Source of the DNA: a bacterium
Lineage (GTDB): Bacteria; UBA8248
Direction of reading: 5' to 3'
DNA: 64,000 nucleotides
Assembly: GCA_965261085.1 (NCBI GenBank)
Contig: OZ253442.1
Location: 1,280,001-1,344,000, forward strand
Positions 13,754 through 41,544 of the stretch are shown here, one piece after another. The notes under the pieces were generated by a model that was not told where the DNA came from, made no database searches, and worked only from the letters and a program-made list of their open reading frames with translations. Position 1 is the first letter of the stretch. Each line of letters starts with the position of its first letter. The position numbers were made by a program, and so were the translations under genes.

Positions 13754-13782
13754 GAAGAGCCTGTGATTGAGAAATGTTTATC

Positions 13783-15619: not shown

Positions 15620-15951
15620 AGCCCTTATCTCACTGAAAATATTCTTAAAATCTGCACTGATCGGCCTCTTTTCGCGGCGGAATTCATGCGCTCTTTCATA
15701 ACAGCATTCGGCCCAATGAGGCAATGAATCAAGGTGAATTTCAAGGCCAACTACGAAGAGGGTTGACTTAGAGTGAAAGGTGCATTACTTGAATGGAGAA
15801 GGTGTGAGTTCCTGGCGGTTCCGATTTGATTAGAAGTCAATTTTATAGGTCCTGTGCCTGAAATCACCGATATTTCGTGTGCGAATGACTGCGTTGCACA
15901 TTTTTGAAAACAGTAGCTGCCAATCTGAAAAATTCTTTGAGAGGAGTAGGT

Positions 15952-22555: not shown

Positions 22556-23470
22556 ATGAACTCCCCCCAGAATAACCCTCCGATTTTTGTTCCTGACAAA
22601 AGTAAAGTTGTCGTTCCGTTTATGCGCGATGTTTTTACGATTCCCAGGAATTCTCGCCATAAGCCCAATCTCATTGGGTCTGTTTGTAGGGAATGCGAGG
22701 AGTATTTTTTCCCGAAAACCGGGTCGAAAACCACTTGCGACAACCCGGTTTGTCCGCGTAGCACGAGCGAAGTGCTTCTGAGCGGGAAGGGCAAACTTCT
22801 TTCGGCCACGATCACGCGTTCTTCCGTAGACGGGAATGTAGAACATGTCTCCGCGGTCATACTCCTGGATGAGGGGATAAAGATAAATTCCCACTTGATT
22901 GACTGGGAAGGTTACCGGGACATGTTGGTTCCCGGTTCTCCGGTGGAACTCGTGTTGCAGGATCTCGGAGAGAATGAATGGCGTGAAACGCAGGTGGGCT
23001 ATGCTTTTCGCTTGATGACAGGACGTAGAAAACCCGTATTCCCGCCTACGGAAGAAGAAAAACGGGCGGCCGAGGCGGCGCGCGCAGAAGATGAGAAAAA
23101 AGCGAAAAAACAACGGGCGCGGCAGAAAAAAGCTGCAGCGCAGAAAAAGCGAACGGCAGCCAGGAAAAAAGCCCCCGTTGTGAAGAAAAAAACGACTGCC
23201 GCTCCCAAGAAAACCACTACGGCGAATAGCAAAACGGCCAGCTCTCAAGGGAAAGCGGCTGCCGCAAAGAAAAAAGCGGCAACGACGCGGAAAACGGCGG
23301 CTAAAAAGAAAACGCTCGCCGGCAAAGCCGTGAATACTGCCAAGAAGAGGACTCCCGCTAGAAAAATCGCTGCAAACAAGGCGGCCAAGGCGAAGGCTCC
23401 GAAGAAAACAGCGGTGAAAAAGACCACTCAGAAGAAAACTGCCTCCAAAACCACCAGGAAGCGCCGCTAG
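22556..23470 (+). CDS. Zn-ribbon + OB-fold (DUF35/ChsH2-like) protein with histone-H1-like Lys/Ala tail
   Basis: LIGSVCRECEEYFFP..CDNPVC, GKGKLLS.T, GSPVELV, GYAFR; then about 130 aa of K/A/T-rich low-complexity sequence. Confidence 0.8.
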   Translation: MNSPQNNPPIFVPDKSKVVVPFMRDVFTIPRNSRHKPNLIGSVCRECEEYFFPKTGSKTTCDNPVCPRSTSEVLLSGKGKLLSATITRSSVDGNVEHVSAVILLDEGIKINSHLIDWEGYRDMLVPGSPVELVLQDLGENEWRETQVGYAFRLMTGRRKPVFPPTEEEKRAAEAARAEDEKKAKKQRARQKKAAAQKKRTAARKKAPVVKKKTTAAPKKTTTANSKTASSQGKAAAAKKKAATTRKTAAKKKTLAGKAVNTAKKRTPARKIAANKAAKAKAPKKTAVKKTTQKKTASKTTRKRR

Positions 23471-23488: not shown

Positions 23489-24655
23489 ATGCCACTCCTC
23501 CAGGGTTTGAAAGTCGTTGACGCCAGCCAGTTCAATGCCGGCCCCATCGTATCGCTCTATCTCGCGGGCTATGGGGCGGAAGTCATCAAGGTGGAGCGCC
23601 CCGGCGGAGAGGACAGCCGCGCCATCGGTCCTTTCAAAAACGGCGAGAGCAGCTATTTTATGAGCCTGAATCGCGGCAAGCGCTCCATCACGCTTGATCT
23701 CAAAAACCCGGAAGGTGTGGAGGTGTTCAGGAAGCTTTGCCGCGGGGCGGATGTTCTGGTGGAAAACCTCCTCCCCGGCGTGATGGATCGTCTGGGCGTC
23801 GGCTGGGAGGTACTGAAAGCCGAAAATCCCAGGCTCATATACGGCGCGGTCTCAGGCTTCGGCCAGAGCGGGAAAAACGCGAGGCGCCCCGCCTTCGACA
23901 GCCTCTTGCAAGCCGCGGGCGGCCTCATCAGCGTGACGGGGCCTGTGGACGGAGAGCCCGTGCGCGTGGGCGTCTCTATTGTCGACGTGGCGAGCGGCCT
24001 CTACCTCCTCTCGGGCGTTCTCACCGCCCTGTTCCGCCGAGAACGCACCGGAGAAGGCATGCGCGTGGATGCCTCGATGATGGGCGCGACCGTCAACATC
24101 ATGGAAAACCCGGTGGCGCGCCACACCTTTACAGGCCAAGTACCTGAACCAGAAGGGCTTTCCCATCCGGTGGTCTCTCCCTTTTCGGGCTATAAGACGA
24201 AGGACGGCCTCATATTCGTGGCAATCTCGAACACGAACCGCTACCGCGTATTCCTCGAAGCCATTGAAAAGCCTGCGCTCGCTGACGATCCCCGCTTCGC
24301 CGAGAACAAAGACCGCGTGGCGAACGACGCCGCCCTGCGCGCGATTCTCGAGGATATCCTCACTGAAAAGACGACCGCCGAGTGGGAGGAACTCCTTATT
24401 CCCCAAGGGGTTACGGTGAGCGCCATCAACGACGTGGCGCAGGTGAAAGAGCGCTTCCCGGAGGCCTTCGTCGAGGTCGACCACCCCGCGGCGGGGCCTG
24501 GGCTTCTGCCCGCCTCACCCTTGACGTTCGCAGGCGTTACCCCTGATTTTTCAAGGCCTTCGCCGGTGGTGGGCGAGCACACGCAAGCGATTCTCGCTGA
24601 ATTGGGCTACTCGGCGGAGGAAATCGCCCGCCTGCGCGCCGAAAGCGTCGTGTAA
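23489..24655 (+). CDS. CaiB/BaiF family III CoA-transferase
   Basis: LQGLKVVD, GAEVIKVERP, NRGKRSITLDLK, ADVLVEN, AFDSLLQA, GEHT..IL.ELGYS. Confidence 0.95.
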   Translation: MPLLQGLKVVDASQFNAGPIVSLYLAGYGAEVIKVERPGGEDSRAIGPFKNGESSYFMSLNRGKRSITLDLKNPEGVEVFRKLCRGADVLVENLLPGVMDRLGVGWEVLKAENPRLIYGAVSGFGQSGKNARRPAFDSLLQAAGGLISVTGPVDGEPVRVGVSIVDVASGLYLLSGVLTALFRRERTGEGMRVDASMMGATVNIMENPVARHTFTGQVPEPEGLSHPVVSPFSGYKTKDGLIFVAISNTNRYRVFLEAIEKPALADDPRFAENKDRVANDAALRAILEDILTEKTTAEWEELLIPQGVTVSAINDVAQVKERFPEAFVEVDHPAAGPGLLPASPLTFAGVTPDFSRPSPVVGEHTQAILAELGYSAEEIARLRAESVV

Positions 24656-24763: not shown

Positions 24764-25045
24764 ATCGTATTGTTTACTTGTTTTTTAGCTATGGAAGGGA
24801 TGTTCGGGATGGTGCGGCCGGGTGCCGGTGAAACAGCGTCGCGGGGTCGGCTCTTCCCGGCTCGGAAGCGATGGGCCGAGGCGCCACTTGGGCCGATGGG
24901 TCTGCCCGCTTCCGGTGGGGATGAGCGCCGCCTTTCTCGAGGCGCGGCCCGTGGTGTAATCTACACACGCGCGCAGGTTTAGCGCGATGCGCAAGTGCGG
25001 GCAAATGCTGGCTCAAAGCCGAACGGGGTCAATCGCGACCGAGTA

Positions 25046-25237
25046 GGGGCTGTTGAAAAAGCCTTTGTCAAGGGAGCAACCCCCCTGTCCCCCCTTGTCA
25101 GGGGGGTAAAGGCGATGCCCCCCGACGAGGGGGTGGAAGAAAAGCCCCCCTGACAAGGGGGGACAGGGGGGTTGCTTTTACCAGTCGAAAGGGGTGTCCC
25201 CTCTACTCTCTAAAAAGGGGTCTTTTTCAACAACCCC
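25046..25237. mobile_element. 192-bp MITE, copy A (TIR gggg(c/t)tgttgaaaaag, 5-bp TSD gagta, internal 32-bp inverted repeat)
   Basis: Ends ggggctgttgaaaaag...ctttttcaacaacccc, flanked by gagta on both sides. Second copy at 41275-41466. Confidence 0.88.
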
Positions 25238-25374
25238 GAGTAGGGAGTGATTGCAGTTTGCCGCCCGCGCACGGATGCGGGGCGGACTCGAATTCAGAGC
25301 GCGCTTGCTGTCTCTACCGGGTCGATTCCGCAGGCGCCATGCGCCGTCCCCCAAATGCCTCGGGAGTATGAAAA

Positions 25375-25794
25375 ATGCTCATTGTGAACGAGAGGCTCCG
25401 AATCCCTTTGCGGGAAATCCACTTTCAGTTCGCGCGAAGCTCCGGCCCCGGCGGGCAGAACGTGAACAAGGTGTCGAGCAAGGCGGTGCTGCGCTGGAAC
25501 ATGGCCGCCTCGCCGAGCGCGCCCGATGACGTGAAGGAAAGGCTCCGCGCGCTCCACCCGCGCCGCGTGACGCGCGAGGGCGAGGTCGTCATCACGAGTA
25601 GCCGCTTTCGCGATCAGGGCCGAAACGTCGCCGATTGCCTCGAAAAGCTGCGCGCCGCCCTCGCCGAAGTCTCTACGCCTCCCAAACCCAGACGCCCCAC
25701 GCGCCCCACCCGCTCATCGGCCGAAAAACGCCTCCAGGAAAAACGCGAACGCGCCGAGAAGAAGAGGAAGAGGGGGAAGGTCAATCCCGACTGA
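25375..25794 (+). CDS. arfB: Alternative ribosome rescue factor ArfB (YaeJ), intact copy
   Basis: FARSSGPGGQNVNKVSSK, RDQGRN..DCLEKL, basic tail PKPRRPTRPTRSS..KRL..K. Confidence 0.95.
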   Translation: MLIVNERLRIPLREIHFQFARSSGPGGQNVNKVSSKAVLRWNMAASPSAPDDVKERLRALHPRRVTREGEVVITSSRFRDQGRNVADCLEKLRAALAEVSTPPKPRRPTRPTRSSAEKRLQEKRERAEKKRKRGKVNPD

Positions 25795-25904
25795 GGAGGG
25801 AGGGATTGCGAGGCGAGGGGGTGTTCCGCTTGACCGGTTCGATTTTCGAAAGATAGACTCGCGTTCCGCCCGATTGGTGTTTCTTTACATTTGTTTTGTC
25901 ATTT

Positions 25905-25930
25905 GTAGGGGCCGTTCGCGAACGGCCCTA
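25905..25930 (+). repeat. GTAG-type REP palindrome
   Basis: gtaggggccgttcgcgaacggcccta, directly upstream of the SIR2 gene. Confidence 0.75.
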
Positions 25931-25955
25931 TTCCATCAGGTATGCGAGCGATAAA

Positions 25956-28900
25956 ATGTCTTTGCGATTCTCGGACGACGGCCCGGAATTTCCCGATGAA
26001 CTTGTAGACGACCTGCTTAAAGGCGAGGTTGTGTTCCTATGCGGGGCTGGGGTAAGTGCGCCTCAACTGCCCGGGTTTAAGCAACTGGTTTGCCAGTGTT
26101 TTAAGCCTCTCAACGTTTCAATGAACGATACCGAAAAAATAGCCTTTAAAGCAGAACGGTACGAAGAAGTCTTGGGATCGCTTAGTCGACGTATAGTCGA
26201 CCCTAGCGAATTGACGAAAGTTGTCTCTAAGGAAGTACAAGCACCAAGTAGGGTCAACCTTTCCAACCATCGCACAATCCTTCGCCTATCACGCGACCTC
26301 GAAAATAGGCCTACTATCGTCACTACCAACTTCGACACTTTATTCGAGAGGGCAGTAAACGAAGCAGGATTCACAGACAAGGTTGCCAACCTCAGCTTTG
26401 CGGGACAAGAAATCCCCGCGCCCGGAAGCGTAGGCTTCGGTGGCATCATCCATATTCATGGCCGGATAGCCGATGAACAGATTCAACTCGGTCAGACACC
26501 ACTGGTTTTCACTAGCGCTGACTATGGCGATGCCTATCTGCGATCTGGTTGGGCATCCCGCTTCTTTTTCGATCTGGTGCGCTGCAAGACGCTCGTGCTC
26601 GTAGGATATAGCGCTGGTGATGCTCCGGTGCGTTATCTTCTGAATGTTCTTGAGAACGATCGAGAACGCTTCCCGGATTTGCGGTTGGTCTACGCGTTTG
26701 ATGGGATTGATACGGATGCTGCAGAAGCTGTGGCGCGCTGGGCATCATTGGCAGTTCCTCCGCTTTTCTATCAGAAGAAAAAGGATTCTAAAAAACGTCA
26801 CGAAGCTTTATGGAATGATCTTTCCTTATTGGCTGACCTGATTGAATGTCCTAAAGCGACTAGGCGTTCAATGGTTCAAGAAATTCTTGAGAAGTCCTTC
26901 GAAGAAACTGACGACAAAGAACGAGATAACGTTAGCTGGTTGTTTAACGAACGAAGCGATCTATGGGGCGTTGCTATCCGAGCGATTCATGATCCCGACT
27001 GGTTCGATTTTCTGGCAGATAAAAATCTATGGTCTAACGATGATGCTGCGTGGGTACTCGCCGCATGGATAGCCCGCGATTTTACAGATGCCCAGCGTTT
27101 TCAGACTGCAATCAAATGGCACAATCAGAAGCTCAGTGAAGAAATTGCCAGACGCCTATTGTATAGAGAATCAAAGCAGGAAGTTTCTGATATTTGGCTT
27201 CGAACTTGGCGTTTGTTGACAAGAAATGTACCTCTCCAAAATGCAGACGATGGAATCCCATTTTATGAAATCAAACAGATACTGGCGGGGCCAGTCGTCT
27301 TGCGTGCAGATATTGAGAAAGCTGTGGATTTACTTTCCCCAAGGGTTAAGCTCTCGACTCGGACTCTTTACGGTACACCTATACCGGAAAATCCCAATAG
27401 GCTTGCTGATCTGGCCTATGTGGAGATAACAGGCCCCAATCACAATGATTCATCCGATCTCATTGAGGCCTTGCTCAAGATTCCGTGTCACGAAGAACTA
27501 GTGGGAATTGCAACAACTGCTCTGCGTTCAGCTATTGGCTATATGGTCGATGCCGAGTTAATTGGCGATGCCTATGATGAGAATGACTTTAGCGTACCAT
27601 CAATCGAAAAGCATCCACAAAACAATCATCGTGACGGGGTTAGATTTTTGGTTCGGCTTTTGGTGGGACTACTACCACTGGTGGCGAAAACAGATCCCGA
27701 AGTCGTCAGGCGATATGTAGAAGAGTGGAAAAACATTCCAGGGCGCATAGGCAAGAGATTGTCGTTGCATGCGTTTAGGGATGAAGCGCTTTTCACGGCT
27801 AACGAAGCATTAAACTATGTTTTGAGTTTGTCCGAGGTGGACTTTTGGATAATTCGCCGTGAACTTGCTCTTGTGCTTCGGGACCGTGCTGGTACCGCCG
27901 ATGAAGCACTTGTTCGAGAGGTTGAAGAGCGCATCATCTCTGAAGGAGATCGGTTTTTTCAGCGTTATAGTGTCGAAGAAGGACAACCCGATTGGCGACC
28001 ATACGCTCGGGATAGAGATGTTTGGTTGTTACTCAACATGATGGCCGAAGCAATAGTCATTTCTGAAATTGGTCAAACAGAACTTGAAGAAATCAAGGCC
28101 AGACGTGCGCACCTTAAGCGCAAGGTCGAGTGCCGAGACTTTTTCAGTTCCTACACTTCTGGTGTTCGTACCGTAACCGGGGACGCAAAGCCGATTTTAG
28201 AAGCGGATGAGGATGATAAACTACGTGTCGCTCATGAGTTAATGCAGAGTCCAGATATCGAGAAACAAGAAGGGTGGAACACCTACTGCCGATCTGATCC
28301 GAAAGGTGCCCTCAACGTTCTAAAGGAAGCGCCTCTTGAACTCGCAAATACTCGCCTCTGGCAAGACTTAATTTCTGCGCTTTATATTGCCAACGAGGAG
28401 GAAAGAACAAAACGCGAACATATTGTTATTGATGTTTTCCAGATACTTGAGTCTGCAAAAAATGATTTCATCCTTAATCTCCTCATGGAACTCACCCAGT
28501 TGTACCGCTCTACGCCACGCAAAAAGATAACAAACAGTAATGATTGGTGGACTCGACTTTTTGAACTTACGAGCAAATCTGAAATTAGACTTCTTGACGC
28601 AAAGCAAAATTTTTATGGTCGCTCGATCAATTCACCCTCTGGTCATCTTACCGAGGCGCTATTGCTAGATGTAGAGGAATGTCACAAAGCGGCTCGGACA
28701 ATTCCAGAGGTATATCTAAACAATCTCATTACTGCCGCAACGTCCGACGGGTCTTCCGGCACTCTTGCCCGTGCGCCTCTTGTCCACAATGCAGCATTTC
28801 TTTTGTCAGTTATTCCTGAGTTTGATGCCACCCCCTTGGTTGATGCTTTATCAGGTGACGATACTGAAAGCGCTGGTTTGAGAGCAGTGCTTGTTACCAA

Positions 28901-29561
28901 CAGTTCAACCACATTGAAGTTTTTCCAAGTTTTTTCTTCTCAAATCCTGAGAGGAGCGAGAGAATTTGATGGTTCTGGTCATGAGACGCAAACCGCTGCC
29001 TCGAAAATATTACTGCCGCTCGTTTACGTTTTATTGGGAAACGAAGAAGCAAAGGATTGTGGGATTACAAAGCGAGAAGTCATTAGAACACTGCGTGAAG
29101 GCTCCAACGAACTTAGGGTCGGCGCTGTCCAATGTTTGTCGTATTGGGTAAGAAAACTCAGAGACCGGCCAGCCGAAAAAAACTGGAGAGACATAATAGG
29201 CCTACTTCACGACGCGGTTTGGCCGCGTGAACGTCGCTTCCGCGACTGTTCAATTAGCCAACACTTCGGATCACTCGCTGTTGGTGCAGGTGATGCCTTC
29301 CCGGAAGCACTGGAGCAGTTGCTGCCTTATCTTGTCCCGCTTACTCGTTATGGAAGTATCCATGATATTGAGCAGTCTAAGGCTCCAGACAAACATCCGC
29401 ACGAGACGTTGAAATTACTTTGGATTCTTTGTGGCCCCAAAAGCAATCGAGAGTTCCATGAAATGCCAAAGGTACTCAACCGCCTAATCGAAGCCGATCC
29501 TTCGATTGAAACTGATCGCAGATTCCAATGGCTGGAGCAAAACACGACACGCTTTGAGTAA
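25956..29561 (+). CDS. SIR2-domain anti-phage NADase, DSR1-like (SIR2_2 + long helical C-terminus)
   Basis: VVFLCGAGVS..LPGF, IVTTNFDTLFE, IHIHG, DYGDAYL..GWA, LVGYSAGD. About 1200 aa, lower GC than flanks. Start trimmed to ATG 25956. Confidence 0.85.
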   Translation: MSLRFSDDGPEFPDELVDDLLKGEVVFLCGAGVSAPQLPGFKQLVCQCFKPLNVSMNDTEKIAFKAERYEEVLGSLSRRIVDPSELTKVVSKEVQAPSRVNLSNHRTILRLSRDLENRPTIVTTNFDTLFERAVNEAGFTDKVANLSFAGQEIPAPGSVGFGGIIHIHGRIADEQIQLGQTPLVFTSADYGDAYLRSGWASRFFFDLVRCKTLVLVGYSAGDAPVRYLLNVLENDRERFPDLRLVYAFDGIDTDAAEAVARWASLAVPPLFYQKKKDSKKRHEALWNDLSLLADLIECPKATRRSMVQEILEKSFEETDDKERDNVSWLFNERSDLWGVAIRAIHDPDWFDFLADKNLWSNDDAAWVLAAWIARDFTDAQRFQTAIKWHNQKLSEEIARRLLYRESKQEVSDIWLRTWRLLTRNVPLQNADDGIPFYEIKQILAGPVVLRADIEKAVDLLSPRVKLSTRTLYGTPIPENPNRLADLAYVEITGPNHNDSSDLIEALLKIPCHEELVGIATTALRSAIGYMVDAELIGDAYDENDFSVPSIEKHPQNNHRDGVRFLVRLLVGLLPLVAKTDPEVVRRYVEEWKNIPGRIGKRLSLHAFRDEALFTANEALNYVLSLSEVDFWIIRRELALVLRDRAGTADEALVREVEERIISEGDRFFQRYSVEEGQPDWRPYARDRDVWLLLNMMAEAIVISEIGQTELEEIKARRAHLKRKVECRDFFSSYTSGVRTVTGDAKPILEADEDDKLRVAHELMQSPDIEKQEGWNTYCRSDPKGALNVLKEAPLELANTRLWQDLISALYIANEEERTKREHIVIDVFQILESAKNDFILNLLMELTQLYRSTPRKKITNSNDWWTRLFELTSKSEIRLLDAKQNFYGRSINSPSGHLTEALLLDVEECHKAARTIPEVYLNNLITAATSDGSSGTLARAPLVHNAAFLLSVIPEFDATPLVDALSGDDTESAGLRAVLVTNSSTTLKFFQVFSSQILRGAREFDGSGHETQTAASKILLPLVYVLLGNEEAKDCGITKREVIRTLREGSNELRVGAVQCLSYWVRKLRDRPAEKNWRDIIGLLHDAVWPRERRFRDCSISQHFGSLAVGAGDAFPEALEQLLPYLVPLTRYGSIHDIEQSKAPDKHPHETLKLLWILCGPKSNREFHEMPKVLNRLIEADPSIETDRRFQWLEQNTTRFE

Positions 29562-29745
29562 GAGGCATGAGAGTATATTAACATTTTCGGAAACTGGCCC
29601 CTCCACGCCGCTCCGGGAGTATTCACCCATGCTCATTGTGAACGAGAGGCTCCGAATGGGAATTATATACGAAATTACCCAAAAACACTTTACAAATGAG
29701 TCGGGTTAGGGTAAACTGTTGCCATAAGTAAATGGAGGTTACAAG

Positions 29746-30726
29746 ATGGCGCAGAGAGCACCCGGCAAGGCATACCGGAAGGGGATTTCACTCGTAGAGT
29801 TAATTCGCATGTTTCCCGACGATGCGGCCGCGGAGGCATGGTTCATCAAGACGCGCTGGCCCGTGGGCGTATGTTGCCCCGAATGCGGGAGCCTGAACGT
29901 TCAGGAGCGCAAAACACGTAAGCCCCAGCCTTTCCGTTGCCGTGATTGCCGCAAGGATTTCTCGGTAAAGACCGGAACGCTCATGGAGGGGTCGAAGCTG
30001 GGCCTTCAAAAATGGGCCATCGCCTTCTACCTTTCCTCCACGAACCTCAAGGGCGTCTCCTCCATGAAACTACACCGCGATCTGGGCGTTACACAGAAAA
30101 CCGCATGGTTCATGATGCACCGTATCAGGGAGACGTGGCGCGATAATGGCGGGCTATTCGATGGCCCTGTCGAGGTAGACGAAACCTACGTGGGCGGGAA
30201 GCGAAAGAACATGCCGAAGGCCAAGCGGGAGAAATTAGAGGGTCGGGGAATCGCCGGGAAGGCCGTGGTAGCCGGCGTAAAGGATCGGGAAACGAACCTC
30301 ATTAAGGCCAGCGTGGTGGAATCGACCGATAAGGAAACATTGCAGGGCTTCGTTCATGAACGGGTAAAGAGCGGGGCCAAGGTATATACCGATGACCATA
30401 CCTCCTATCAGAACATGCGCGGATTCGACCATGAGGCCGTAAAGCATAGCGTCGGCGAATACGTGCGGAAGCAAGCCCATACGAACGGCGTGGAGAGTTT
30501 CTGGGCGATGCTCAAGCGGGCGCACAACGGCGTTTTTCACAAGATGAGCCGTAAGCATCTGGGCAGGTATGTAAACGAGTTCGCGGGCCGCCACAATATG
30601 CGCCCCATGGATACCATCGACCAGATGGAATCCATGGTTTCAGGAATGAACGGCAAGCGACTCCGCTATAAGGAATTGGTAGCACCAACACCTAAGCGTT
30701 CTCCGCAGGGCTTGTATCTGTTTTAG
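29746..30726 (+). CDS. IS1595-family transposase
   Basis: Zn ribbon CPEC..CRDC, FSVKTGT, HTH (SSMKLHRDLGVTQKTAW), VEVDETY, VYTDD, HTNGVESFW, YVNEF. Confidence 0.95.
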   Translation: MAQRAPGKAYRKGISLVELIRMFPDDAAAEAWFIKTRWPVGVCCPECGSLNVQERKTRKPQPFRCRDCRKDFSVKTGTLMEGSKLGLQKWAIAFYLSSTNLKGVSSMKLHRDLGVTQKTAWFMMHRIRETWRDNGGLFDGPVEVDETYVGGKRKNMPKAKREKLEGRGIAGKAVVAGVKDRETNLIKASVVESTDKETLQGFVHERVKSGAKVYTDDHTSYQNMRGFDHEAVKHSVGEYVRKQAHTNGVESFWAMLKRAHNGVFHKMSRKHLGRYVNEFAGRHNMRPMDTIDQMESMVSGMNGKRLRYKELVAPTPKRSPQGLYLF

Positions 30727-30735
30727 GACAACACC

Positions 30736-30996
30736 TTATCCCGACAGAGAATGCCGCCGATTTTTTCTGTTTAGCGGGTCGGCCAAAATTGTTTTACGCA
30801 TGGCTTCTTTGTCAAAAGAAGGGGCCGTTTTTCGATCTGGCATTCTGGCGGCAATTTTCTTTAACAGTTCGTCCGTGCTTCGCATGATTCCGAGAACAGC
30901 GGTTTTGAATTGCTTAATTTGTCGGTCTTTTTCTTCTGGCGGAGCCATCATGAATTCAATCATGACATTGAGGCCAGTTCGTTGATTCGCGTGCAT
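30736..30996 (-). CDS. Hypothetical 86-aa IS passenger protein
   Basis: ORF with GGAAGGG RBS 7 nt upstream, next to the palindromic promoter region. Confidence 0.55.
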   Translation of the reverse strand: MHANQRTGLNVMIEFMMAPPEEKDRQIKQFKTAVLGIMRSTDELLKKIAARMPDRKTAPSFDKEAMRKTILADPLNRKNRRHSLSG

Positions 30997-31031
30997 GTCT
31001 AAACCCTTCCGATAGGCACACCTATCCTAAG

Positions 31032-31164
31032 AGGTTGACATGAGCACTTTGTGGGGATATATTCAGGTTGCTTATGACTGAACATATCCCGTAAGCGGTC
31101 ATGTCAACCTGGCGAACGGGCGGAACGGAATTGAGGGCGTCGCGAGCGCCCTCTTTTCATTTTT
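31032..31164 (+). ncRNA. Candidate small RNA: sigma70 promoter inside a 79-bp palindrome, then about 95 nt ending in an intrinsic terminator
   Basis: TTGACA(31035)-N17-TATATT(31058); arms 31032-31066 and 31078-31110; terminator gagggcg-tcgcgag-cgccctc-tttt at 31133-31164; no ORF of 60 aa or more in the track. Confidence 0.5.
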
Positions 31165-31426
31165 AGGATCAATGATCTGGCCCCGCTCGTCAAGCTCCGG
31201 CGAAAATCTCCTGTTGTATTTTCTGCTCTATTTCCATTACAATCCCCTCACGCCAAACGATTCAAACATAGACCCAGCACCACCGGGTCGCCCGCCGAAT
31301 AAAAGATCGCGCCACTCGGCGCGAGAATAGGCGGGGAATCCACCTTATGTTTGATTCGTTTGGCGACCGACCCGGCCCCAGAGGGGCTGGGCGGGCGGCC
31401 TGTTTTTACACACGGAGGGATGAACC

Positions 31427-32182
31427 ATGCGTTACGTTCTGGCGGTTGTGTTGTTGGTTTGTTCTGTATCATTCGCCTTTGGCGCAGACTACACGGTCAT
31501 CGAAAAGATCAACCGACCCTACAGTGGCCGCCATCGCTTGCTCATGAAGATACGGGCGACCGATGCGAATACGGGTGAGGCAATACTTGAGACCATGATG
31601 GACGCGGCCATGGATGCGCAGAAGGCAGAGGGAGCGCACGCCGTCAACGTGAAACTGTATCGAGACGTAAAGGGATCGGCGGATGGCATTATCACGTATT
31701 CCGTGGACGGATGCGGCTGGGCAAACCGGGAATGCAACGCCGGGAACAACTGGAGCCAAGTAATGGTCTGGGATCCTTATCGGCCCGGACATTTGGTGTT
31801 TAACAAGATTCCCGACCGCCTCAAGGATTATGGCCGCCCCACCGGCAAACAGATGAAAGCGGCCAAGGCGGGAACATGCAAAGCAGACTTGAATTGTTGG
31901 GATAAGAAACACCGGGTAGATGCCATCACCAGTTGCCAGATTATGATTGAGGTCATATCGGATCGGGCAAGATATAAATACAAGTGGACGACCGGATGGC
32001 TTGAGCATAAGTTTTCTCGCGTCTCCTGGCCCTCGGGCGAGAAGGGAGGGGAATCCCTTGCTTATTGGGGCAATAAACTGGAAATGCAAAACAAATATGG
32101 AGCATGGGTTCCGTTCACGTATTGGTGCAGATATAACCCGACGACAAAGAGAAGCAAAGTTACACATCTGGCTCCCAGATAA
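31427..32182 (+). CDS. Secreted hypothetical protein (IS passenger), Cys/Trp-containing
   Basis: Signal peptide MRYVLAVVLLVCSVSFAFGA, GGAGG RBS, 251 aa. Confidence 0.75.
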   Translation: MRYVLAVVLLVCSVSFAFGADYTVIEKINRPYSGRHRLLMKIRATDANTGEAILETMMDAAMDAQKAEGAHAVNVKLYRDVKGSADGIITYSVDGCGWANRECNAGNNWSQVMVWDPYRPGHLVFNKIPDRLKDYGRPTGKQMKAAKAGTCKADLNCWDKKHRVDAITSCQIMIEVISDRARYKYKWTTGWLEHKFSRVSWPSGEKGGESLAYWGNKLEMQNKYGAWVPFTYWCRYNPTTKRSKVTHLAPR

Positions 32183-32251
32183 TAAGTTTACTTTTCATTA
32201 CAAGTTCTGCTACCATCCCCATGGTAAAGTTGCCCGTGGGAGGGAGGTTAC

Positions 32252-32431
32252 ATGGACGAGGAAACCAGAGAAGAGTTCAGAAAAATACATGAGCGATTCG
32301 ATGGGGTCGACGAAAAACTCGACGACATAGATAACAAGATGGATCATGGATTTAGAATTTTGCTCCCGGATGAACAATGGCCTCCAGACGCACATGATCT
32401 CCAAAAAGCCGAAATCCGAAGAAAACTGTAA
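32252..32431 (+). CDS. 59-aa coiled-coil-like passenger ORF
   Basis: Below the ORF-track cutoff. GGAGGttacATG; MDEETREEFRKIHERFDGVDEKLDDIDNKMDHGFRILLPDEQWPPDAHDLQKAEIRRKL. Confidence 0.6.
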   Translation: MDEETREEFRKIHERFDGVDEKLDDIDNKMDHGFRILLPDEQWPPDAHDLQKAEIRRKL

Positions 32432-32634
32432 GGATTAGCCGATATGTTGCGCAGGCAATTTTTCCAATACGTTCTGTCGATATGCCTTCCTCGAATTATA
32501 CGTTTTTTTCGAACCCGCAAAAGGCCGCGCCCAAGTATGCAGAAAATCCATCTGGAAATTCGAGGCATACAACTGTCCGGTAGCGGAGGGATCCTGAACT
32601 GTCAATTAGTTGTCGCAAACAAAGGAGTGGTTAC

Positions 32635-32781
32635 ATGACCGAAGAGAAGAAGCCCCGGGGCCGCCCCGTAGAAAAAACCATGCCACCCCCCATCCCCGAC
32701 ACCCCGGAAAACATCGCCCGCGCATGTATGCAAGGCCCGCCGAAAAAAGAATGGGCTTTTTTGAAAAAATCCGCTAAATAA
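32635..32781 (+). CDS. 48-aa basic/proline-rich ORF abutting the IS right TIR
   Basis: AAGGAGtggttacATG; MTEEKKPRGRPVEKTMPPPIPDTPENIARACMQGPPKKEWAFLKKSAK, with an AT-hook-like PRGRP. Confidence 0.6.
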   Translation: MTEEKKPRGRPVEKTMPPPIPDTPENIARACMQGPPKKEWAFLKKSAK

Positions 32782-33242
32782 GGTCGTTTGGGTAATTTCG
32801 TATATAATTCCCCTCCGAATCCCTTTGCGGGAAATCCACTTTCAGTTCGCGCGAAGCTCCGGCCCCGGCGGGCAGAACGTGAACAAGGTGTCGAGCAAGG
32901 CGGTGCTGCGCTGGAACATGGCCGCCTCGCCGAGCGCGCCCGATGACGTGAAGGAGAGGCTCCGCGCGCTCCACCCGCGCCGCGTGACGCGCGAGGGCGA
33001 GGTCGTCATCACGAGCAGCCGCTTTCGCGATCAGGGCCGAAACGTCGCCGATTGCCTGGAAAAACTGCGCGCCGCCCTCGCCGAAGTCTCTACGCCTCCC
33101 AAACCCAGACGCCCCACGCGCCCCACCCGCTCATCGGCCGAAAAACGCCTCCAGGAGAAACGCGAACGCGCCGATAAGAAGAGGAAGAGGGGGAAGGTGG
33201 AGGGGTGACGCTTTTTGAAAGAAGGGTATGGAAATTTAAGTG

Positions 33243-34469
33243 TTACTCATTTTGGATTGATTCCCCTGCAAAGAGACGAACTATGAATCTTTCGCCTTCT
33301 TCTACAAGATAGGGATCGGTTCCGTTATGTTCTTTCATTCCACGAACGATTATACGGGGTACGCCCATCCCCATATGTTCCAGATACCCGTAGTCGCGCA
33401 TTATGTCTTTAAGGAGTTGATTTCTGGCAGCTCGGGTTCCGATTCGCATACGATCCGGTGTGATTCCATTTGGGAGTTTGCCAGGGGAGATTACCTCCAA
33501 TCGATCCTCATAAATTGCCAGTTCAATATCGGTGTCTGCCAGAAGGTAGTCCCTATGAATTAGGGCATTTACTACTGCCTCTCGAATGACCTTGGCTGGA
33601 TATGTTCTCTTTTCCACGCGACGCGTACCGTCTTCAAGGACGGCAGTCACAGGAGTGTTGCGTCTGACAAAATCTAGTGCCTGCTCGACTAACCCGGCTT
33701 CCAGAGTAGCACCGGTCTGATCTAAGAGTGGTGTCATCGGCCCGCGCAATGCCGCCCGTTCTTTAGTCGCATATTCTTTTTCCGTTCCCGGAAACACCGC
33801 CGCGTCGATGCCCGCTTGTGGCAGAAACCGGTTCGGTATTTTTCCGAAGAGCAGTATCCCTGAAAGGGTTACACCCTCTTCGACCATAATCTCCGTATTT
33901 ATCAGCAAGGACTCCCATCCCGCGCCTTCGTCATCTCCCGGAATATCCTGTTGGCGTATCCGGTTGAAGTAATCTTTCAGCCGACGGCGATCTAGATCAT
34001 CGACCGTTGCACCGGAAATCGGTCGCAGATCGGCGCGAAACGTGCCGCGTTGCTGAAATAGACGGCTTAATTCCTGTGGTGTCGGCTCCCGACTTTGCGA
34101 ACCTACCCGGATGTAATAAGTGTTCCTGTTGTTGTGCCACTGACTGTGCACGTCACCGCCGCGCGGCACTCGCACGATCGCCACGTCCTTACCCGGCTCC
34201 ACATCCTTGATCGTTTGAAAAAACGGAATGATGGCTGGTCTGATCTTGTCACGACATGCGTTCATAACCCACTCTTCCAGACGATCTCTCGTTAGCCCGG
34301 CAACGTTTCCATCATCATCCACGCCAAGCAGCACCATTCCGCCTTCTAAGTTCGAGAACGCGACAAGTTCTTTTGCCAAGTCATGGTTTTGCAAAACATC
34401 TAGTTTGAATTCGACGCCGGAATTTTCGCCGTTTGCGATTATTTCCAATAGTTCCGTCCGCGTTGTCAT
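33243..34469 (-). CDS. Schlafen/AlbA_2 domain + HATPase_c_4 ('RecG-like') protein
   Basis: GENSGVEFK..LAKELVAFSNLEGG.VLLGVDDDG; REAVVNALIHRDY..YEDRLEVISPG..GYLEHMGMG. Confidence 0.88.
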   Translation of the reverse strand: MTTRTELLEIIANGENSGVEFKLDVLQNHDLAKELVAFSNLEGGMVLLGVDDDGNVAGLTRDRLEEWVMNACRDKIRPAIIPFFQTIKDVEPGKDVAIVRVPRGGDVHSQWHNNRNTYYIRVGSQSREPTPQELSRLFQQRGTFRADLRPISGATVDDLDRRRLKDYFNRIRQQDIPGDDEGAGWESLLINTEIMVEEGVTLSGILLFGKIPNRFLPQAGIDAAVFPGTEKEYATKERAALRGPMTPLLDQTGATLEAGLVEQALDFVRRNTPVTAVLEDGTRRVEKRTYPAKVIREAVVNALIHRDYLLADTDIELAIYEDRLEVISPGKLPNGITPDRMRIGTRAARNQLLKDIMRDYGYLEHMGMGVPRIIVRGMKEHNGTDPYLVEEGERFIVRLFAGESIQNE

Positions 34470-34472
34470 AGC

Positions 34473-37169
34473 TTAGAAACCATACTTGGAGCGACGCATC
34501 TCGAAGGCGTCTTTTCCACCTTCGAGTATTTCCTCGACCAACTCTCGTACTGGTTTAGAATCAATGGAACCCATATGTTCTGGAGCAATCCTGGCCTGTC
34601 CTACTTCCGCTTCGCCAGAAGCGGTAAGACCCAAGATGAGTTCCGCATCACCCAGTACGGGAATGTTCGCGTTATGTGTAGAGAAAACGAATTGTCGCCG
34701 TCGTTTTTCCTCCCTAATAATTGGCACGATGCCTTCGGTGATGAAGCGGTTGTCCAAGTCATCTTCGGGCTGATCTACTACAAGTGGGGCCTCGGCCTCA
34801 GATTCGAGCAGAAGGAGCAGAAGGATAGCTGTTGCTTTCTGCCCAGTAGAAAGCGCTTCTAGCGTTCGCCAATTAGCTTGCTCATTTTCCGCTGCCGTGT
34901 TGAGTTCGATTTTTGTTGTGGCTGGAAGTTCTAGCTCTTCGATTCTCATGAATAGGTCAAGACCACCTTGTGTAATCCGATCCGCCGCTCCTGAGGGGAA
35001 GCCATAATTCTCGATCAAGGATTCTTTACCTTCTCGGCATAGCTGCGTGAACTCCGGAAGGGATAGTTGATTCATCCTGCGAAGTCGTTCAAGAGCTGCA
35101 GCGAGATTGCCGCCAACTTCCTCCCGCAAAAGTTGTTCAAGTGGCTCGCGGTTTCCCGACATCGTGACTTCTACGCGCACTCGATTACATAGCTTTTTCG
35201 AAACTTTCCTAGCAGCCGCTTCAGTTTCACGGTATTCAGTAGCTTTAATGTCTTCCCACTCTGAGAGAAGCATGCGTCGATTCGACTCGTGAGTGGACAG
35301 ATCGCGCTTAAGTTTCTCTGTCCTATCATTTAGAGGGCGTAACTCCTCAATATCTTGACGTAGACGGATGAATTCTGAACCATCGATGTTTGATTTTTGA
35401 AGTTCTCGCAATAGCTTTTCGTAAGTTTCCTCAATAGTTCTACGCTGCTCGTTCCAACGCGATTTAGTATCCGCGATTGCTGAGTCGGTTTCGGACAACG
35501 CTTGCCCGAGTTGATCTGCAACTTCTTTGAGGCGTGTACTAAGTGTTTCGAGAATTTCCTCTATATTGTTTAAAATTCTCGCGTTTGGTAATCCTTCAAG
35601 CGCCTTTTGCGAGACGAAAGCCGTATCAATCGGAAGTTCATCGGCTAGTTCCCTATGAAGCACTCTCATCGGGGCTAACCGTTCTTCAACATTTGAGAAT
35701 AACCGATCTTCCCGAATTAGAAGACTTTTCTCCTTTAACTTCTCTTCCAATCCTGCTTCTTGGAATCGCTTTTGCATCTCTTCGAGACCGGGTAACGCCG
35801 CCAGCCGCTCCTCAAACCTTTTCATCTCTCGTTTTACGTCCACGATTCGGCTACGGGACTTCTCAAGCTCTAGTTGGACACTTGCCTTGCGCTCCAACAG
35901 AGACGAATCGCGATCTACGAATCGCTCCAGCAACAAAGTGAGTTTATCGGGACTTTTAGTAAGTTCGGAAATCTCATGCTGGCCGAATACTTCCACACCG
36001 GGCATCACGTCACGGGGCGAGAGCATCAGAATTTCACCACTCTCGTCTTTTACAGTGGGCGGATTCGGTACTGAACGTTCGACGGTATAGTGCCGTTCAG
36101 ACGGCTTGTGTGAACGTACTAATAGCGAAACTTTCGTCCCGGATTTCAGTACATGCTGTATTACTCCTTCATGAGTCTTGCGTGCATCTTCTCCTATTGG
36201 GTCAAGACCCAGCACATAGCGGATGCTTTCAACTATTGTTGATTTTCCCGTACCACGTCCGCCGATTAAGGTATTAAGATTACCATTGAAATGGACAGAG
36301 GTATCACGCAAAAATCCCTCTGTCTCCCATGTCATCGCCAGAAATTCGGCATGAAACTCCGGTTGCGAATCACTGTGCAGCCGCATACGGGACCCTGGGT
36401 CAAGGAACGCTTGGCGAAGTGCTTCGACGGAGACTTCTGACATCTTGATGAAGCAAGACGAACGTTCTTCTTGTAGGTCTTTGGGGTCATTCACATCCGA
36501 GGCATTTAAGATAGCTGGGGGATACGTTCGCTTGTGCTCGGCATTCTTGTTTTGAAGGATTGGCTTGATGTCCTCTGGGGCATCGCCAACTGGTCCGGGG
36601 AGCGCACAGGCAAGTAAATCTGGTGATGTCCAAACATTAACTCGTGTTTGTCCTGAGAGTTTTCTGAGCAGGCCACCGTCTGATGCTACATGTGCTGCGA
36701 TGCAAGCGGCTCCCCAACTCCTTGAATGTTCCAAAAGCTCAGTACAGTCCAACGTGCCTATTGGTGAGAGTTGGCTCGAATCATGAATGCCGCAATCCCC
36801 GATGAGCCTTTCTAGCTGATCATCTTTGTCGGGGTCGAAGAGGCAAAGAAAGTGAACACCGTCTTTCGTTACGGCTTCAAATCCGCTAAAAGCCCACAAA
36901 CTGGCTTCGCGAGCGGTGGCGATTAGGTTCCGAGAATCCGCTATGCGGTAATGGTCCGTGACGCCAATCACCTCGGTTTCTGTTTTAAGACAGGCCTCAA
37001 TGATTGCTTCGTTGTATTCGTCTTCGGACTGAAAAGGTGTCGATATATTATGCCTGATGAGATAAGCGAATGGGTTGACCTGCAAAGCGCAACGATAAAA
37101 CCGCGCACCATTCGGGAGAGCTAGTGCGGCTCGCATGGTTTCGGACTGGAATTGCTTGACTCCCTCCAT
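34473..37169 (-). CDS. PHP-domain + SMC/ABC ATPase (Ppl/TrlF-like)
   Basis: PHP motifs GVTDHY, GFE..VHFLCLF, AAHV, ASD; Walker A GGRGTGKS; coiled coil; LSTGQK, VVDQPEDDLDN, STHNAN, ILEGG..AF..R..KY. Confidence 0.88.
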   Translation of the reverse strand: MEGVKQFQSETMRAALALPNGARFYRCALQVNPFAYLIRHNISTPFQSEDEYNEAIIEACLKTETEVIGVTDHYRIADSRNLIATAREASLWAFSGFEAVTKDGVHFLCLFDPDKDDQLERLIGDCGIHDSSQLSPIGTLDCTELLEHSRSWGAACIAAHVASDGGLLRKLSGQTRVNVWTSPDLLACALPGPVGDAPEDIKPILQNKNAEHKRTYPPAILNASDVNDPKDLQEERSSCFIKMSEVSVEALRQAFLDPGSRMRLHSDSQPEFHAEFLAMTWETEGFLRDTSVHFNGNLNTLIGGRGTGKSTIVESIRYVLGLDPIGEDARKTHEGVIQHVLKSGTKVSLLVRSHKPSERHYTVERSVPNPPTVKDESGEILMLSPRDVMPGVEVFGQHEISELTKSPDKLTLLLERFVDRDSSLLERKASVQLELEKSRSRIVDVKREMKRFEERLAALPGLEEMQKRFQEAGLEEKLKEKSLLIREDRLFSNVEERLAPMRVLHRELADELPIDTAFVSQKALEGLPNARILNNIEEILETLSTRLKEVADQLGQALSETDSAIADTKSRWNEQRRTIEETYEKLLRELQKSNIDGSEFIRLRQDIEELRPLNDRTEKLKRDLSTHESNRRMLLSEWEDIKATEYRETEAAARKVSKKLCNRVRVEVTMSGNREPLEQLLREEVGGNLAAALERLRRMNQLSLPEFTQLCREGKESLIENYGFPSGAADRITQGGLDLFMRIEELELPATTKIELNTAAENEQANWRTLEALSTGQKATAILLLLLLESEAEAPLVVDQPEDDLDNRFITEGIVPIIREEKRRRQFVFSTHNANIPVLGDAELILGLTASGEAEVGQARIAPEHMGSIDSKPVRELVEEILEGGKDAFEMRRSKYGF

Positions 37170-37532
37170 AAACACTTCACCTTTAGGTTTTATCTTGTTT
37201 CAATGGTTTAATGATATGCTTCTCGACGATATCCCTTCCCTCTCGTGTTTGATGATTCGTTTAACACACATCCGCGTTTTTTTCACTATAATGCACTATC
37301 CTAGGAACTCAACAGGCTCTTGGGTTTATTGTTGACTCTGGCAGAATTGATTTCCCTTCAGTGCAATCTCCACTCTTCCCTTATTATCTCCCCTTTCCTA
37401 ACGCTTAATAACGGGATTTGTTATTGAACTTTATGCGCTAAATGTTAACAGCGGGATTCGTTATTTTACTTTCGATGCTAAAAGCAAATAACGGTATTCG
37501 TTATTGTACTTTGGTGAAGAAGGACATACCCC

Positions 37533-38414
37533 TCAATACCGCTCGGGCACGAAGGTCTGCTCGCCGATGGGGGGCCGCACGTAGGCTTGATCGGGCCGGC
37601 GCGGGGGGAGTTCGATGGGCGAGGGCGTCAAATCGTCATAGGGGATGAGGGAGAGCAGGTGGCTGATGCAGTTCAGCCGCGCGCGGCGCTTCGAATCCGC
37701 GTCCACCACGTACCAGGGGGCCTGCTTGATGTCGGTGTGGGCGAACATCTCGTCTTTCGCCTTTGAGTACTCCACCCAGCGGGTGCGCGATTCGAGGTCC
37801 ATCGGCGAGAGCTTCCAGCGCCGCGTGGGGTCTTCGATGCGCGCGTGAAAGCGGCGCTCCTGCTCCTCGTCGCTCACCGAGAACCAGTATTTGATCAGGA
37901 CTATCCCTGAGCGCGCGAGCATCCTCTCGAACGTGGGGCATGAGTGCAGGAACTCGCGGTAATCCTCATCCGTGCAAAAGCCCATCACCCGCTCCACGCC
38001 CGCGCGGTTGTACCAGGAGCGATCGAAGAGCGCCATCTCGCCCGCTGCGGGCAGGTGCGGTGCGTAGCGCTGGAAATACCACTGCGTCTGTTCGCGCTCG
38101 GTGGGCGCGGCCAGCGCCACCACGCGGCAGATGCGCGGGCTCAAGCTCTGCGTGATGCGCTTGATGACGCCGCCCTTGCCGGCCGCGTCTCGTCCCTCGA
38201 AGATGACGACGACTTTAAGGCCCTCCTTCCGTATCCACTCCTGGAGCTTTACGAGTTCTATCTGGAGCCTCGCGAGTTCGGCCTCATAGACCCTTTTGGT
38301 CAGCTTCTGGCGCGGGGCTTTTCTGGCGTCTCCCCCCCGGGTGTAGGCGGCGGCGCTCCCCTCTGCGCGCTCCGCTCCCCGGTGGTCTGTGCGGGGTTCG
38401 TTTGCTTTGCTCAT
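37533..38414 (-). CDS. ppk2: Polyphosphate kinase 2
   Basis: FEGRDAAGKGGVIKRI, WYFQRY, FDRSWYNRAGVERVMGF, WKLSPMD, KRRARLNCI. Confidence 0.95.
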   Translation of the reverse strand: MSKANEPRTDHRGAERAEGSAAAYTRGGDARKAPRQKLTKRVYEAELARLQIELVKLQEWIRKEGLKVVVIFEGRDAAGKGGVIKRITQSLSPRICRVVALAAPTEREQTQWYFQRYAPHLPAAGEMALFDRSWYNRAGVERVMGFCTDEDYREFLHSCPTFERMLARSGIVLIKYWFSVSDEEQERRFHARIEDPTRRWKLSPMDLESRTRWVEYSKAKDEMFAHTDIKQAPWYVVDADSKRRARLNCISHLLSLIPYDDLTPSPIELPPRRPDQAYVRPPIGEQTFVPERY

Positions 38415-39137
38415 GCCGGGTCGGTCCTCTTTTGTGTTGTTGGTCGTCTCGATTATGAACGCCTCGCGGGAGGCCGCGCAAGCAATAAAATAGGGGAGGC
38501 GTTGCGGCGGAGGTCTTTTCAGATGCCGCGCGGGGGGGGAGGTTGGCGAGGGCGAGGTGGACGGCGCGGGCAAGTACGTGCCGGCCATGATCGTCCTCTA
38601 CGTGGCCATCGCCCTCATCTTCACCCACGCATACTTCGCCGAGGTGAAGGCGGTGCGGAAAATAAAAGGAGCAGGTAAGCCAAAAGTGCTCGCCACGGTG
38701 AAGATCGAATTGGGCTCCTATTGACCCCTGGTCGAATATATTCTCGGTGCGTCGCTCCTTACGGAGCGGGGAGGTCCATCAACCCGGGAATTTTTCAGGC
38801 GCACAAAAATTGTGGTTTTTCGTCAAAATTTTTGTTATTATGACGTTGCGACACAGACGATGACCACAAGGCATAGGGAAGCGTAAAACTTCCCCTTGGA
38901 ACATCGACCGCAAGTGGATGGCGGGACACCTGCTTTTCAGGGCAATCCCGTACCACCATCCAGGAATATTGGACGTGAAATTGCCCGGAATGGGGAATGG
39001 TTCACCGGCTTTTCGAATCATTCCTGCTCCGGGTGTGGAACGAACGCAGGCGAGGATTGTGAAAGCGCCTGCGAAACATCACGAACGGCAACTGATTCTT
39101 TGGATTCAGTTCCCGATAACCAGAATGGGGACCAATC

Positions 39138-41108: not shown

Positions 41109-41274
41109 GGCGAATCGGGCCCCTTTGTTATTGGATATGCAGGTAGGTTATGGGCGGCCTGCGTTTGTGTCAAGTTGTGGATCAGCCCCGACCGAGGAGG
41201 GAGGGGCTGCCAGACCGAGGAGGGAGGGGCTGCTGCGGATGAGCAACACCCCGGCTCGCAATTCCTCGCTCTCC

Positions 41275-41466
41275 GGGGTTGTTGAAAAAGACCCCTTTTT
41301 AGAGAGTAGAGGGGACACCCCTTTCGACTGGTAAAAGCATCCCCCCTGTCCCCCCTTGTCAGGGGGGTAAAGGCGATGCCCCCCGACGAGGGGGTGGAAG
41401 AAAAGCCCCCCTGACAAGGGGGGACAGGGGGGTTGCTCCCTTGACAAAGGCTTTTTCAACAACCCC
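41275..41466. mobile_element. 192-bp MITE, copy B (inverted relative to copy A)
   Basis: ggggttgttgaaaaag...ctttttcaacaacccc; flanks tctcc/tcttc (TSD with 1 mismatch). Confidence 0.88.
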
Positions 41467-41544
41467 TCTTCGCCCGGAATTGACCCCCCATGCTATAATA
41501 TCTCTCGAACCGACATCCCCCGCTCTCCTGCATGAAGGCGTCCA

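Follow-up and report, generated by a model that had tools for sequence, protein, structure and literature searches.

We analyzed a 64,000-nucleotide (nt) stretch of an uncultured bacterium (UBA8248), referred to here as the window (positions 1,280,001 to 1,344,000 of contig OZ253442.1, assembly GCA_965261085.1). It contains two copies of arfB, a gene for a ribosome rescue factor, and each copy is followed by a different defense cargo. The genome is metagenome assembled as a single 4.27-Mb contig and is 96% complete. All coordinates are window positions unless another locus is named; related genomes carry G numbers, and individual loci or contigs carry L numbers. The order of features is a CoA-transferase gene, a 230-bp dispersed repeat, arfB copy 1, a leader, a DSR1-like gene, a spacer, arfB copy 2 split by an insertion sequence (IS), a Schlafen gene, a TrlF-family gene, and the gene for PPK2. 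The left flank is a conserved family III CoA-transferase gene (23489 to 24655, plus strand; Pfam CoA_transf_3, 3.5e-116). The right flank is the gene for polyphosphate kinase 2, PPK2 (37533 to 38588, minus strand; Pfam PPK2, 2.2e-109), which is also conserved. The cargo has a GC content of 0.45 to 0.53, compared with about 0.60 to 0.65 for the flanks. None of the nine window proteins scanned with Pfam has an integrase domain.

Two arfB copies, one intact and one split by an IS

Copy 1 (25375 to 25794, plus strand) is intact and encodes 139 amino acids (aa) ending in VNPD. It belongs to the ArfB family, with 67.3 bits against Pfam RF-1 (threshold of 35) and 155 bits against the NCBIfam ArfB equivalog (cutoff of 100). 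A GGQ motif and a Lys/Arg-rich tail are visible in its translation. Copy 2 lies on the same strand in two parts. The 5' part (29613 to 29657) holds the ribosome-binding region and the first 29 nt of the coding sequence, which starts at 29629; these 29 nt are identical to copy 1. The 3' part (32813 to 33208) ends in VEG and is 98.4% identical to copy 1 over 386 nt. There is no third arfB elsewhere in the genome.

We then compared the two copies base by base. The first 164 bp of the coding sequence are identical. Six substitutions follow within 25539 to 25758, five of them synonymous and one causing E128D, with a ratio of nonsynonymous to synonymous divergence (pN/pS) of 0.07. The copies diverge completely from 25782, which gives the different C-terminal ends. 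All six substitutions fall within the last 243 of the 407 shared positions; the chance probability of this clustering is about 0.045, which is not strong enough to locate a crossover. Copy 1 matches G008, L089, and L090 at its 3' end and in the leader downstream of it. Copy 2 matches G006 and G014, both of which carry Schlafen plus TrlF, at its 3' end and in the sequence that follows.

The element that splits copy 2 is an IS1595-family insertion sequence of 3,155 bp (29658 to 32812, plus strand). It has 26-bp inverted ends and is bracketed by an 8-bp target duplication, CTCCGAAT, at 29650 to 29657 and 32813 to 32820. Its transposase (29746 to 30726) matched DDE_Tnp_IS1595 (1.9e-40) and NCBIfam transpos_IS1595, and the element is present as a single copy in the genome. 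The IS also carries a DUF4875 passenger gene (31427 to 32182) whose product has a signal-peptide-like N terminus, and about 1.3 kb of it is devoid of open reading frames (ORFs) of at least 125 aa among those scanned.

The spacer between the DSR1-like gene and copy 2 is 67 bp. Within it, homology comparison delimits a 38-bp junction (29575 to 29612) between the end of the DSR1 homology and the start of the arfB upstream homology. Nothing in the rest of the genome or among the other loci compared (255 loci, with nine copies of the window's own locus left out) matches this junction. The 16 to 20 nt upstream of copy 2 match the arfB upstream region of G004.

A different defense cargo follows each copy

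The gene behind copy 1 (25896 to 29561, plus strand) encodes 1221 aa by its longest ORF, and its likely start is the ATG at 25956. The protein contains a SIR2 domain (Pfam SIR2_2, 5.5e-16, residues 140 to 269) and matched PADLOC Dsr1 at 6.3e-84, with the best stretch at 23 to 350. Its length is near the 1248 to 1275 positions of the Dsr1 profiles. However, it scored 349.6 bits against NCBIfam Dsr1, below the cutoff of 1400, and the best stretch covered the N-terminal residues 24 to 336 only. On these profile matches, the protein is best called DSR1-like. Window positions 25358 to 29574 are colinear with the arfB-DSR1 region of G012 at 79.5% nucleotide identity, and the two DSR1 proteins are 73% identical. 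A scan of genome contigs with the DSR1-like protein as the query recovered no relative. The window's genome has a second DSR1-like paralogue (G000:C1:3776166-3779768; 44% identity), and the leader motif is not present there.

The cargo behind copy 2 consists of two genes on the minus strand. The first (33243 to 34469) encodes a 408-aa protein with Schlafen AlbA_2 and HATPase_c_4 domains (Pfam SLFN_AlbA_2, 1.7e-19; HATPase_c_4, 2.9e-20), and 85%-identical orthologues lie beside arfB in G006 and G014. The second (34473 to 37175) encodes a 900-aa AAA-like ATPase of the TrlF family, which matched NCBIfam TrlF_fam_ATP end to end over residues 22 to 899 (508.7 bits; cutoff of 350). The ATPase resembles Ppl, mainly at the C terminus (PADLOC Ppl, 5.6e-34), but its 160.1 bits against NCBIfam Ppl_antiphage fell short of the cutoff of 1000. 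Pfam reported no PHP domain in it.

These results agree in most respects with a first-pass annotation made from the window sequence. That annotation had described two direct arfB copies, the second split by an IS, with about six mostly synonymous differences and distinct last codons. It had named ArfB as a GGQ ribosome rescue factor, and it had seen lower-GC, defense-type cargo that differed after each copy and no integrase. All of these points held. Its assignment of the first cargo to the SIR2/DSR type also stood, and the label "PHP-ATPase" is refined here to a TrlF-family ATPase resembling Ppl. It had further reported a shared cgggagtat just upstream of both start codons. The sharing is real, but the site is not special: gggagtat is the general arfB ribosome-binding region, found exactly or with one letter changed in 12 of 12 aligned arfB upstream sequences.

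Short-read contigs support the duplication

We compared the window with short-read contigs from runs X2 and X3 of one sample; runs X1 and X6 hold low-depth pieces only. One contig equals the window without any difference over 25752 to 32842 in X2 and 25789 to 32842 in X3. Starting at the arfB 3' end, it crosses the leader, DSR1, the joint, the arfB 5' part, and the IS and reaches arfB again. Therefore, the arfB duplication around DSR1 is real. A second contig, also free of differences, covers 33177 to 37558 and contains the arfB end, Schlafen, and TrlF. A more abundant relative in the same sample has an empty site, in which 33206 is joined to 37430 with 35 other letters.

The tandem might have been created by the assembly, through merging of a DSR1 strain with a Schlafen-TrlF strain. 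In favor of this, the genome was assembled from a metagenome into one contig, the sample harbors related strains together, and the two runs give different depth ratios for the two cargo contigs. However, the difference-free contig reaches from the arfB 3' end through DSR1 into the IS-split arfB, and similar arrays are found in four other genomes and one metagenome contig. We consider such a merge very unlikely.

The arfB-PPK2 gap is a defense hotspot in the genus

arfB is present in 17 of the 22 other genomes of the genus, and we fetched its neighborhood for these 17. PPK2 lies downstream of arfB in 13 of them and the CoA-transferase gene upstream in 12; the misses include short contigs. Some of these relatives are labeled Nitrospinota. 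The recurrent order is CoA-transferase, arfB, variable and mostly low-GC cargo, and PPK2.

Among 14 genomes or contigs, at least nine types of known or candidate defense systems occupy the arfB-PPK2 gap. G008 has a Type ISP restriction-modification system. Type II restriction-modification is present in G002, G011, and G017; Vsr was detected in the first two (the corresponding ORF of G017 was not scanned), and the last two have a cytosine methylase. A 1735-aa helicase-nuclease that is PDC-S37-like and Mokosh-like occupies the site in G021. HEC-02 is found with a PDC-M48B-like gene in G015, and L089 carries a HEC-02 that is 86% identical to the one in G015. The cargo consists of QatC-like genes in G004 and G018, of SIR2-APAZ plus a short prokaryotic Argonaute (pAgo) in G003, of DSR1 in G012 and, as a 25%-identical version, in L090, and of Schlafen plus TrlF in G006 and G014. 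Finally, G013 has a trio of a 407-aa protein, AdoMet_dc, and DUF3326. Thus, both window cargoes are also found alone at the same site and with the same left boundaries, DSR1 in G012 and Schlafen plus TrlF in G006 and G014. Therefore, the window contains two alternative occupants in tandem.

No integrase or recombinase was found among 49 proteins of the window and the relatives scanned with Pfam (some small ORFs were outside the scan). The one mobility gene among them is the IS transposase of the window. The site has conserved flanks, variable content dominated by defense genes, and no dedicated mobility gene, as expected of an integrase-free core defense hotspot. The arfB-PPK2 gap is such a hotspot, and it is common to this genus of uncultured bacteria.

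The trio of G013 belongs to a three-gene cassette that encodes an approximately 407-aa protein without a Pfam family, a 154-aa AdoMet-decarboxylase-like protein, and a 456-aa DUF3326 protein. We saw it three times behind the arfB leader (L053:652-3733, L088:7105-10165, and L089:16534-19618). The approximately 407-aa and 456-aa proteins had no PADLOC match (the 154-aa protein was outside that scan). The cassette sits among defense genes and is a candidate new defense system. L089 has, in addition, a 971-aa ORF between two arfB stumps (13292 to 16207), which had no PADLOC match (a Pfam scan was not made). With these two unmatched cassettes among known systems, the site is a lead to new defense systems.

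A conserved leader and REP-like hairpin precede the cargo

Directly after arfB copy 1 is a conserved 134-bp leader (25795 to 25928, plus strand). It has a promoter-like site at 25830 to 25859 (TTGACC, 18 nt, TAGACT; one found versus 0.1 expected) and ends in a hairpin resembling a repetitive extragenic palindrome (REP). The leader motif is unique in the genome. The leader after arfB is kept in eight modules ahead of five cargo types, or six when L090's 25%-identical DSR1 is treated as a separate type. The REP-like hairpin (25905 to 25928) consists of GTAG followed by a GC-rich palindrome, a pattern with 17 matches in the genome. Sequences diverge by cargo directly after the hairpin, and cargo start codons lie 17 to 55 nt past it in five of six modules. 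In G008 (L046/L047), G013 (L053), and G012 (L075), the cargo lies between inverted REP-like hairpins. The empty site of G004 (L062) has two such hairpins 7 bp apart. A RAYT/Y1 transposase was considered as the cause of the REP-bracketed cargo, and none was found in the 96%-complete genome. A search of Rfam gave nothing above the gathering score, with only microRNA-like hairpin matches far below it.

The PPK2 side has a conserved border as well (37397 to 37532), which is 89% identical to those of G008 and G006 despite the different cargo. It contains three 19-bp near-palindromes of the AATAACGGGATTyGTTATT type at 37407, 37447, and 37487, exactly 40 bp apart and unique in the genome. They could be an operator or a recombination site.

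arfB remnants recur among relatives

Extra arfB copies or stumps are present in 4 of the 17 arfB-positive relatives (G004, G013, G015, and G018) and in the metagenome contig L089. In G015, a 5' stump spanning -17 to codon 25 comes before the full arfB, and the last 83 bp of arfB follow the HEC-02 cargo. This 3' stump has its junction at about codon 57 and an internal deletion between short repeats. In G004, an arfB cut at codon 108 (3' truncated) is followed by 15 kb of metabolic genes and then by the full arfB beside PPK2. L089 has three modules in a row. The first is the full arfB, leader, and HEC-02; the second is arfB codons 46 to 139, a Vsr remnant, and the 971-aa gene; the third is arfB codons 111 to 139 with the leader, followed by the 408/154/456-aa cassette. 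Identity to the full copy is 96.8% for the first L089 stump and 91.6% for the outer one. Between the full L089 arfB and stump 2, which cannot be functional, there are seven synonymous and three nonsynonymous differences (pN/pS of 0.15).

G013 has a second defense island elsewhere in its genome. There, a decayed arfB pseudogene and the leader precede the same three-gene cassette, and this module is only 80% identical to the copy in the hotspot of G013. Therefore, arfB travels with cargo. This second island (L088, contig C1, about 877 to 897 kb) also contains Type I restriction-modification genes (HsdR, HsdS, and HsdM), a GmrSD-like gene, and an AAA_15/AAA_21 ATPase. In 77 of 80 metagenome loci, those with a distant arfB (54 to 67% identity), we found no second arfB match, a result of little weight given how short many of these loci are. 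The end of L093 falls at residue 89 of arfB, which is a weak hint only of an assembly broken by a repeat.

Full arfB genes with 3' stumps after each cargo, as in L089 and G015, resemble tandem islands at tRNA genes. Hence, a site-specific recombinase encoded elsewhere might integrate cassettes at an attachment site in arfB, and the three unique palindromes at the right border would suit such a mechanism. However, the cargo-to-arfB junction lies at -16 to -54 in the window, at codons 46 and 111 in L089, at about codon 57 in G015, and at codon 108 in G004. The junction differs in every case, which argues against a site-specific recombinase. All the stump lengths differ, and one stump is 3' truncated. 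No integrase was found among the 49 scanned proteins, and no attachment core is repeated at the cargo ends. We therefore give this explanation little credence.

All of the extra arfB copies observed are IS split, truncated, or decayed; redundant arfB copies decay. This result bears on a speculative proposal of the first-pass annotation, that extra ArfB is kept to buffer translation damage from neighboring effectors. The physical linkage of arfB with defense genes is all that speaks for it. We reject the proposal because every extra copy is split by an IS, truncated, or riddled with stops, and arfB itself is conserved in synteny, being present in 17 of the 22 genus genomes; it is the least probable of the explanations considered here. 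In contrast, the checks that the same annotation had called for gave the expected outcome: the arfB neighborhoods of relatives hold variable defense genes across the genus, and further arfB copies or stumps occur in the five cases described above.

A proposed route of cargo addition

We suggest that the addition of cargo took one homologous crossover, within or next to arfB, together with a single illegitimate joint, a route that we hold to be the probable one, with considerable room for doubt. Defense cargo would arrive on DNA of related strains that still carries arfB, often with the leader behind it. This DNA would be fixed by a homologous crossover in arfB or the conserved flank and by an illegitimate joint at the other end. 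The old cargo would be kept rather than replaced, and a second arfB copy would be left between the two cargoes. The redundant copy would then decay. In the window, the outcome would be arfB, leader, the DSR1-like gene, the 38-bp joint, arfB (now IS split), Schlafen plus TrlF, and PPK2. We infer the route itself from comparison of these sequences. Integration of a circle (Campbell type) and of a linear fragment (homology-facilitated illegitimate recombination) give the same product; therefore, the two are not separable from the sequence. In the window, the homologous crossover could have occurred upstream of arfB rather than within it.

The substitution pattern is informative in this regard. 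The differences are biased toward synonymous changes both in the window (five versus one) and in the nonfunctional L089 stump (seven versus three). The copies thus diverged under purifying selection, and the divergence therefore predates the joining. The arfB copies would have diverged as working alleles in separate genomes, and this argues for import from related strains. The locus also has the anatomy, if only the anatomy, of a displacement array: a constant anchor, anchor remnants before older modules, and nonuniform junctions. The idea in the first-pass annotation that arfB alleles act as homology handles is thus largely borne out, now with allele-like divergence (five of six substitutions synonymous) and alternative occupants in tandem. 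Its further proposals, a circular intermediate and the excision or amplification of the 4.25-kb arfB-DSR unit, stay hypothetical.

Several observations weigh against this route. The short-read contigs cannot bridge the shared arfB stretch from 32843 to 33176, so that it is the single-contig assembly that links the two cargoes in every cell. Mean depths for the DSR1 and Schlafen-TrlF contigs are 9.13 and 7.1 in one run and 6.86 and 8.8 in the other; the ratio is not constant, and we draw no conclusion from it, as these depths are whole-contig means. We recovered neither a donor nor a recipient haplotype from the same species, and the joint at 29575 to 29612 matched no source. These organisms are not known to have natural competence or any other route of DNA uptake. 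Every stump is closest to the full copy of its own genome, which also fits duplication in place or gene conversion. Finally, the left cargo boundary lies exactly at the 3' edge of the REP-like hairpin for several cargo types. This precision hints at a preferred entry point or a site-directed step that the model leaves unexplained.

The last two points are at the core of an alternative in which no arfB-bearing DNA is imported. The landing platform (the arfB 3' part, leader, and REP) would be duplicated in place, and each copy would independently capture cargo at the REP hairpin, for example, at palindrome breaks. Consistent with this, the cargo of G008, G013, and G012 is flanked by inverted REPs, and the empty G004 site has a closely spaced pair. 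However, window copy 2 and the G006/G014 type have neither leader nor REP, and the synonymous-biased divergence of a nonfunctional stump indicates that it diverged before joining. In addition, the ectopic G013 module is only 80% identical to the hotspot copy and so was imported with its own arfB, and no Y1/RAYT transposase was found in the genome. We consider duplication in place unlikely.

A related possibility is an integron-like platform for capture and expression that works without an integrase and consists of the arfB 3' end, the leader, and the REP hairpin. In this scenario, the promoter at 25830 to 25859 would read through the hairpin into promoterless cassettes, entry would occur precisely at the center of the inverted REPs, and the array would grow by copying of the platform. 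The leader is kept ahead of five to six cargo types, and older stumps retain it. If the scenario is true, each older defense cassette keeps its own promoter. We view it as tentative, with a somewhat better chance than duplication in place but well short of even.

Comparison with known systems

Johnson et al. (2023; PMC10250203) describe two Pseudomonas aeruginosa sites, cDHS1 and cDHS2, in which conserved core genes flank a slot that holds many defense systems. At many such sites no mobile gene is detectable. The authors propose exchange through homologous recombination within the flanks and leave open how hotspots without mobility genes are built (PMC10250203). The arfB site is like cDHS1 and cDHS2 in having conserved core flanks around varied defense systems. 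Unlike them, it has a flanking core gene that is itself duplicated with each addition, leaving datable remnants. Its cargo is also preceded by a conserved promoter-like leader, and the gene next to the site encodes a protein rather than a tRNA or tmRNA.

A second parallel is found in the orphan immunity arrays of the Vibrio cholerae type VI secretion system (T6SS) and in Rhs C-terminal displacement. According to Kirchberger et al. (2017; PMC5361080), modules are added successively beside a conserved anchor and displace older ones downstream, where these retain the preceding anchor's 3' remnant. An integrase-free process, homology-facilitated illegitimate recombination, is proposed there. The arfB locus likewise has successive modules, anchor remnants, and no integrase. 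However, the T6SS/Rhs anchor is a toxin or structural gene of the same system, whereas arfB is an unrelated housekeeping gene and its cargoes are unrelated antiphage systems.

Integrons capture cassettes in an array that is transcribed from a resident promoter, and the system comprises the intI integrase, attI, and attC. The arfB locus is integron-like in having a promoter-like site in the leader ahead of the cassettes and in that the outermost remnant of L089 is the most diverged and the most truncated; this order would be consistent with addition at the arfB end. It is unlike an integron in having no intI, attI, or attC, in its variable junctions, and in cassettes that lie in either orientation. 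There is no integrase at the locus, and the cassette ends share only the REP-like hairpins, in some genomes. Tandem islands at tRNA or tmRNA genes have a full target gene and then 3' stumps after each island, of a fixed length set by the integrase. The arfB locus also has a full gene followed by 3' stumps, but the stump lengths vary and no integrase was found. Homologous recombination between conserved flanks swaps whole-gene cassettes in the minimal mobile elements of Neisseria, and cassettes are replaced. In contrast, arfB cargo is added with duplication of the flank.

Thus, integrase-free defense hotspots and displacement arrays are already known, and what is new is a housekeeping gene as the repeated anchor, with a conserved leader. 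Each addition at the locus leaves a remnant of the housekeeping gene. The length and divergence of the remnant record the event, so that order and route can be read from the sequence. Among the literature matches listed, no paper paired arfB with "defense island" or "hotspot." Neither arfB nor yaeJ occurs in the main text of PMC10121019; the supplementary tables of hotspot papers may list such flanks.

Neighboring features

The 230-bp palindromic repeat upstream of arfB copy 1 resembles a miniature inverted-repeat transposable element or a REP. It is present at 25020 to 25260 and at 41258 to 41487, and it has 108 matches genome-wide, a dispersal that rules it out as an island border. The copy at 25044 to 25243 is missing in co-occurring relatives, in which 25043 is joined to 25244, so its presence is polymorphic.

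The product of the gene at 22556 to 23470 is 304 aa long and ends in an extended, Lys/Ala-rich C-terminal tail resembling histone H1. Its DUF35-like label comes from appearance only. This gene adjoins the CoA-transferase gene in relatives too. Beyond PPK2, positions 39138 to 40301 encode an acidic, Gly/Asp-rich, RTX-like repeat protein with 16 copies of a 27-nt tandem repeat, and G008 has two such genes in tandem.

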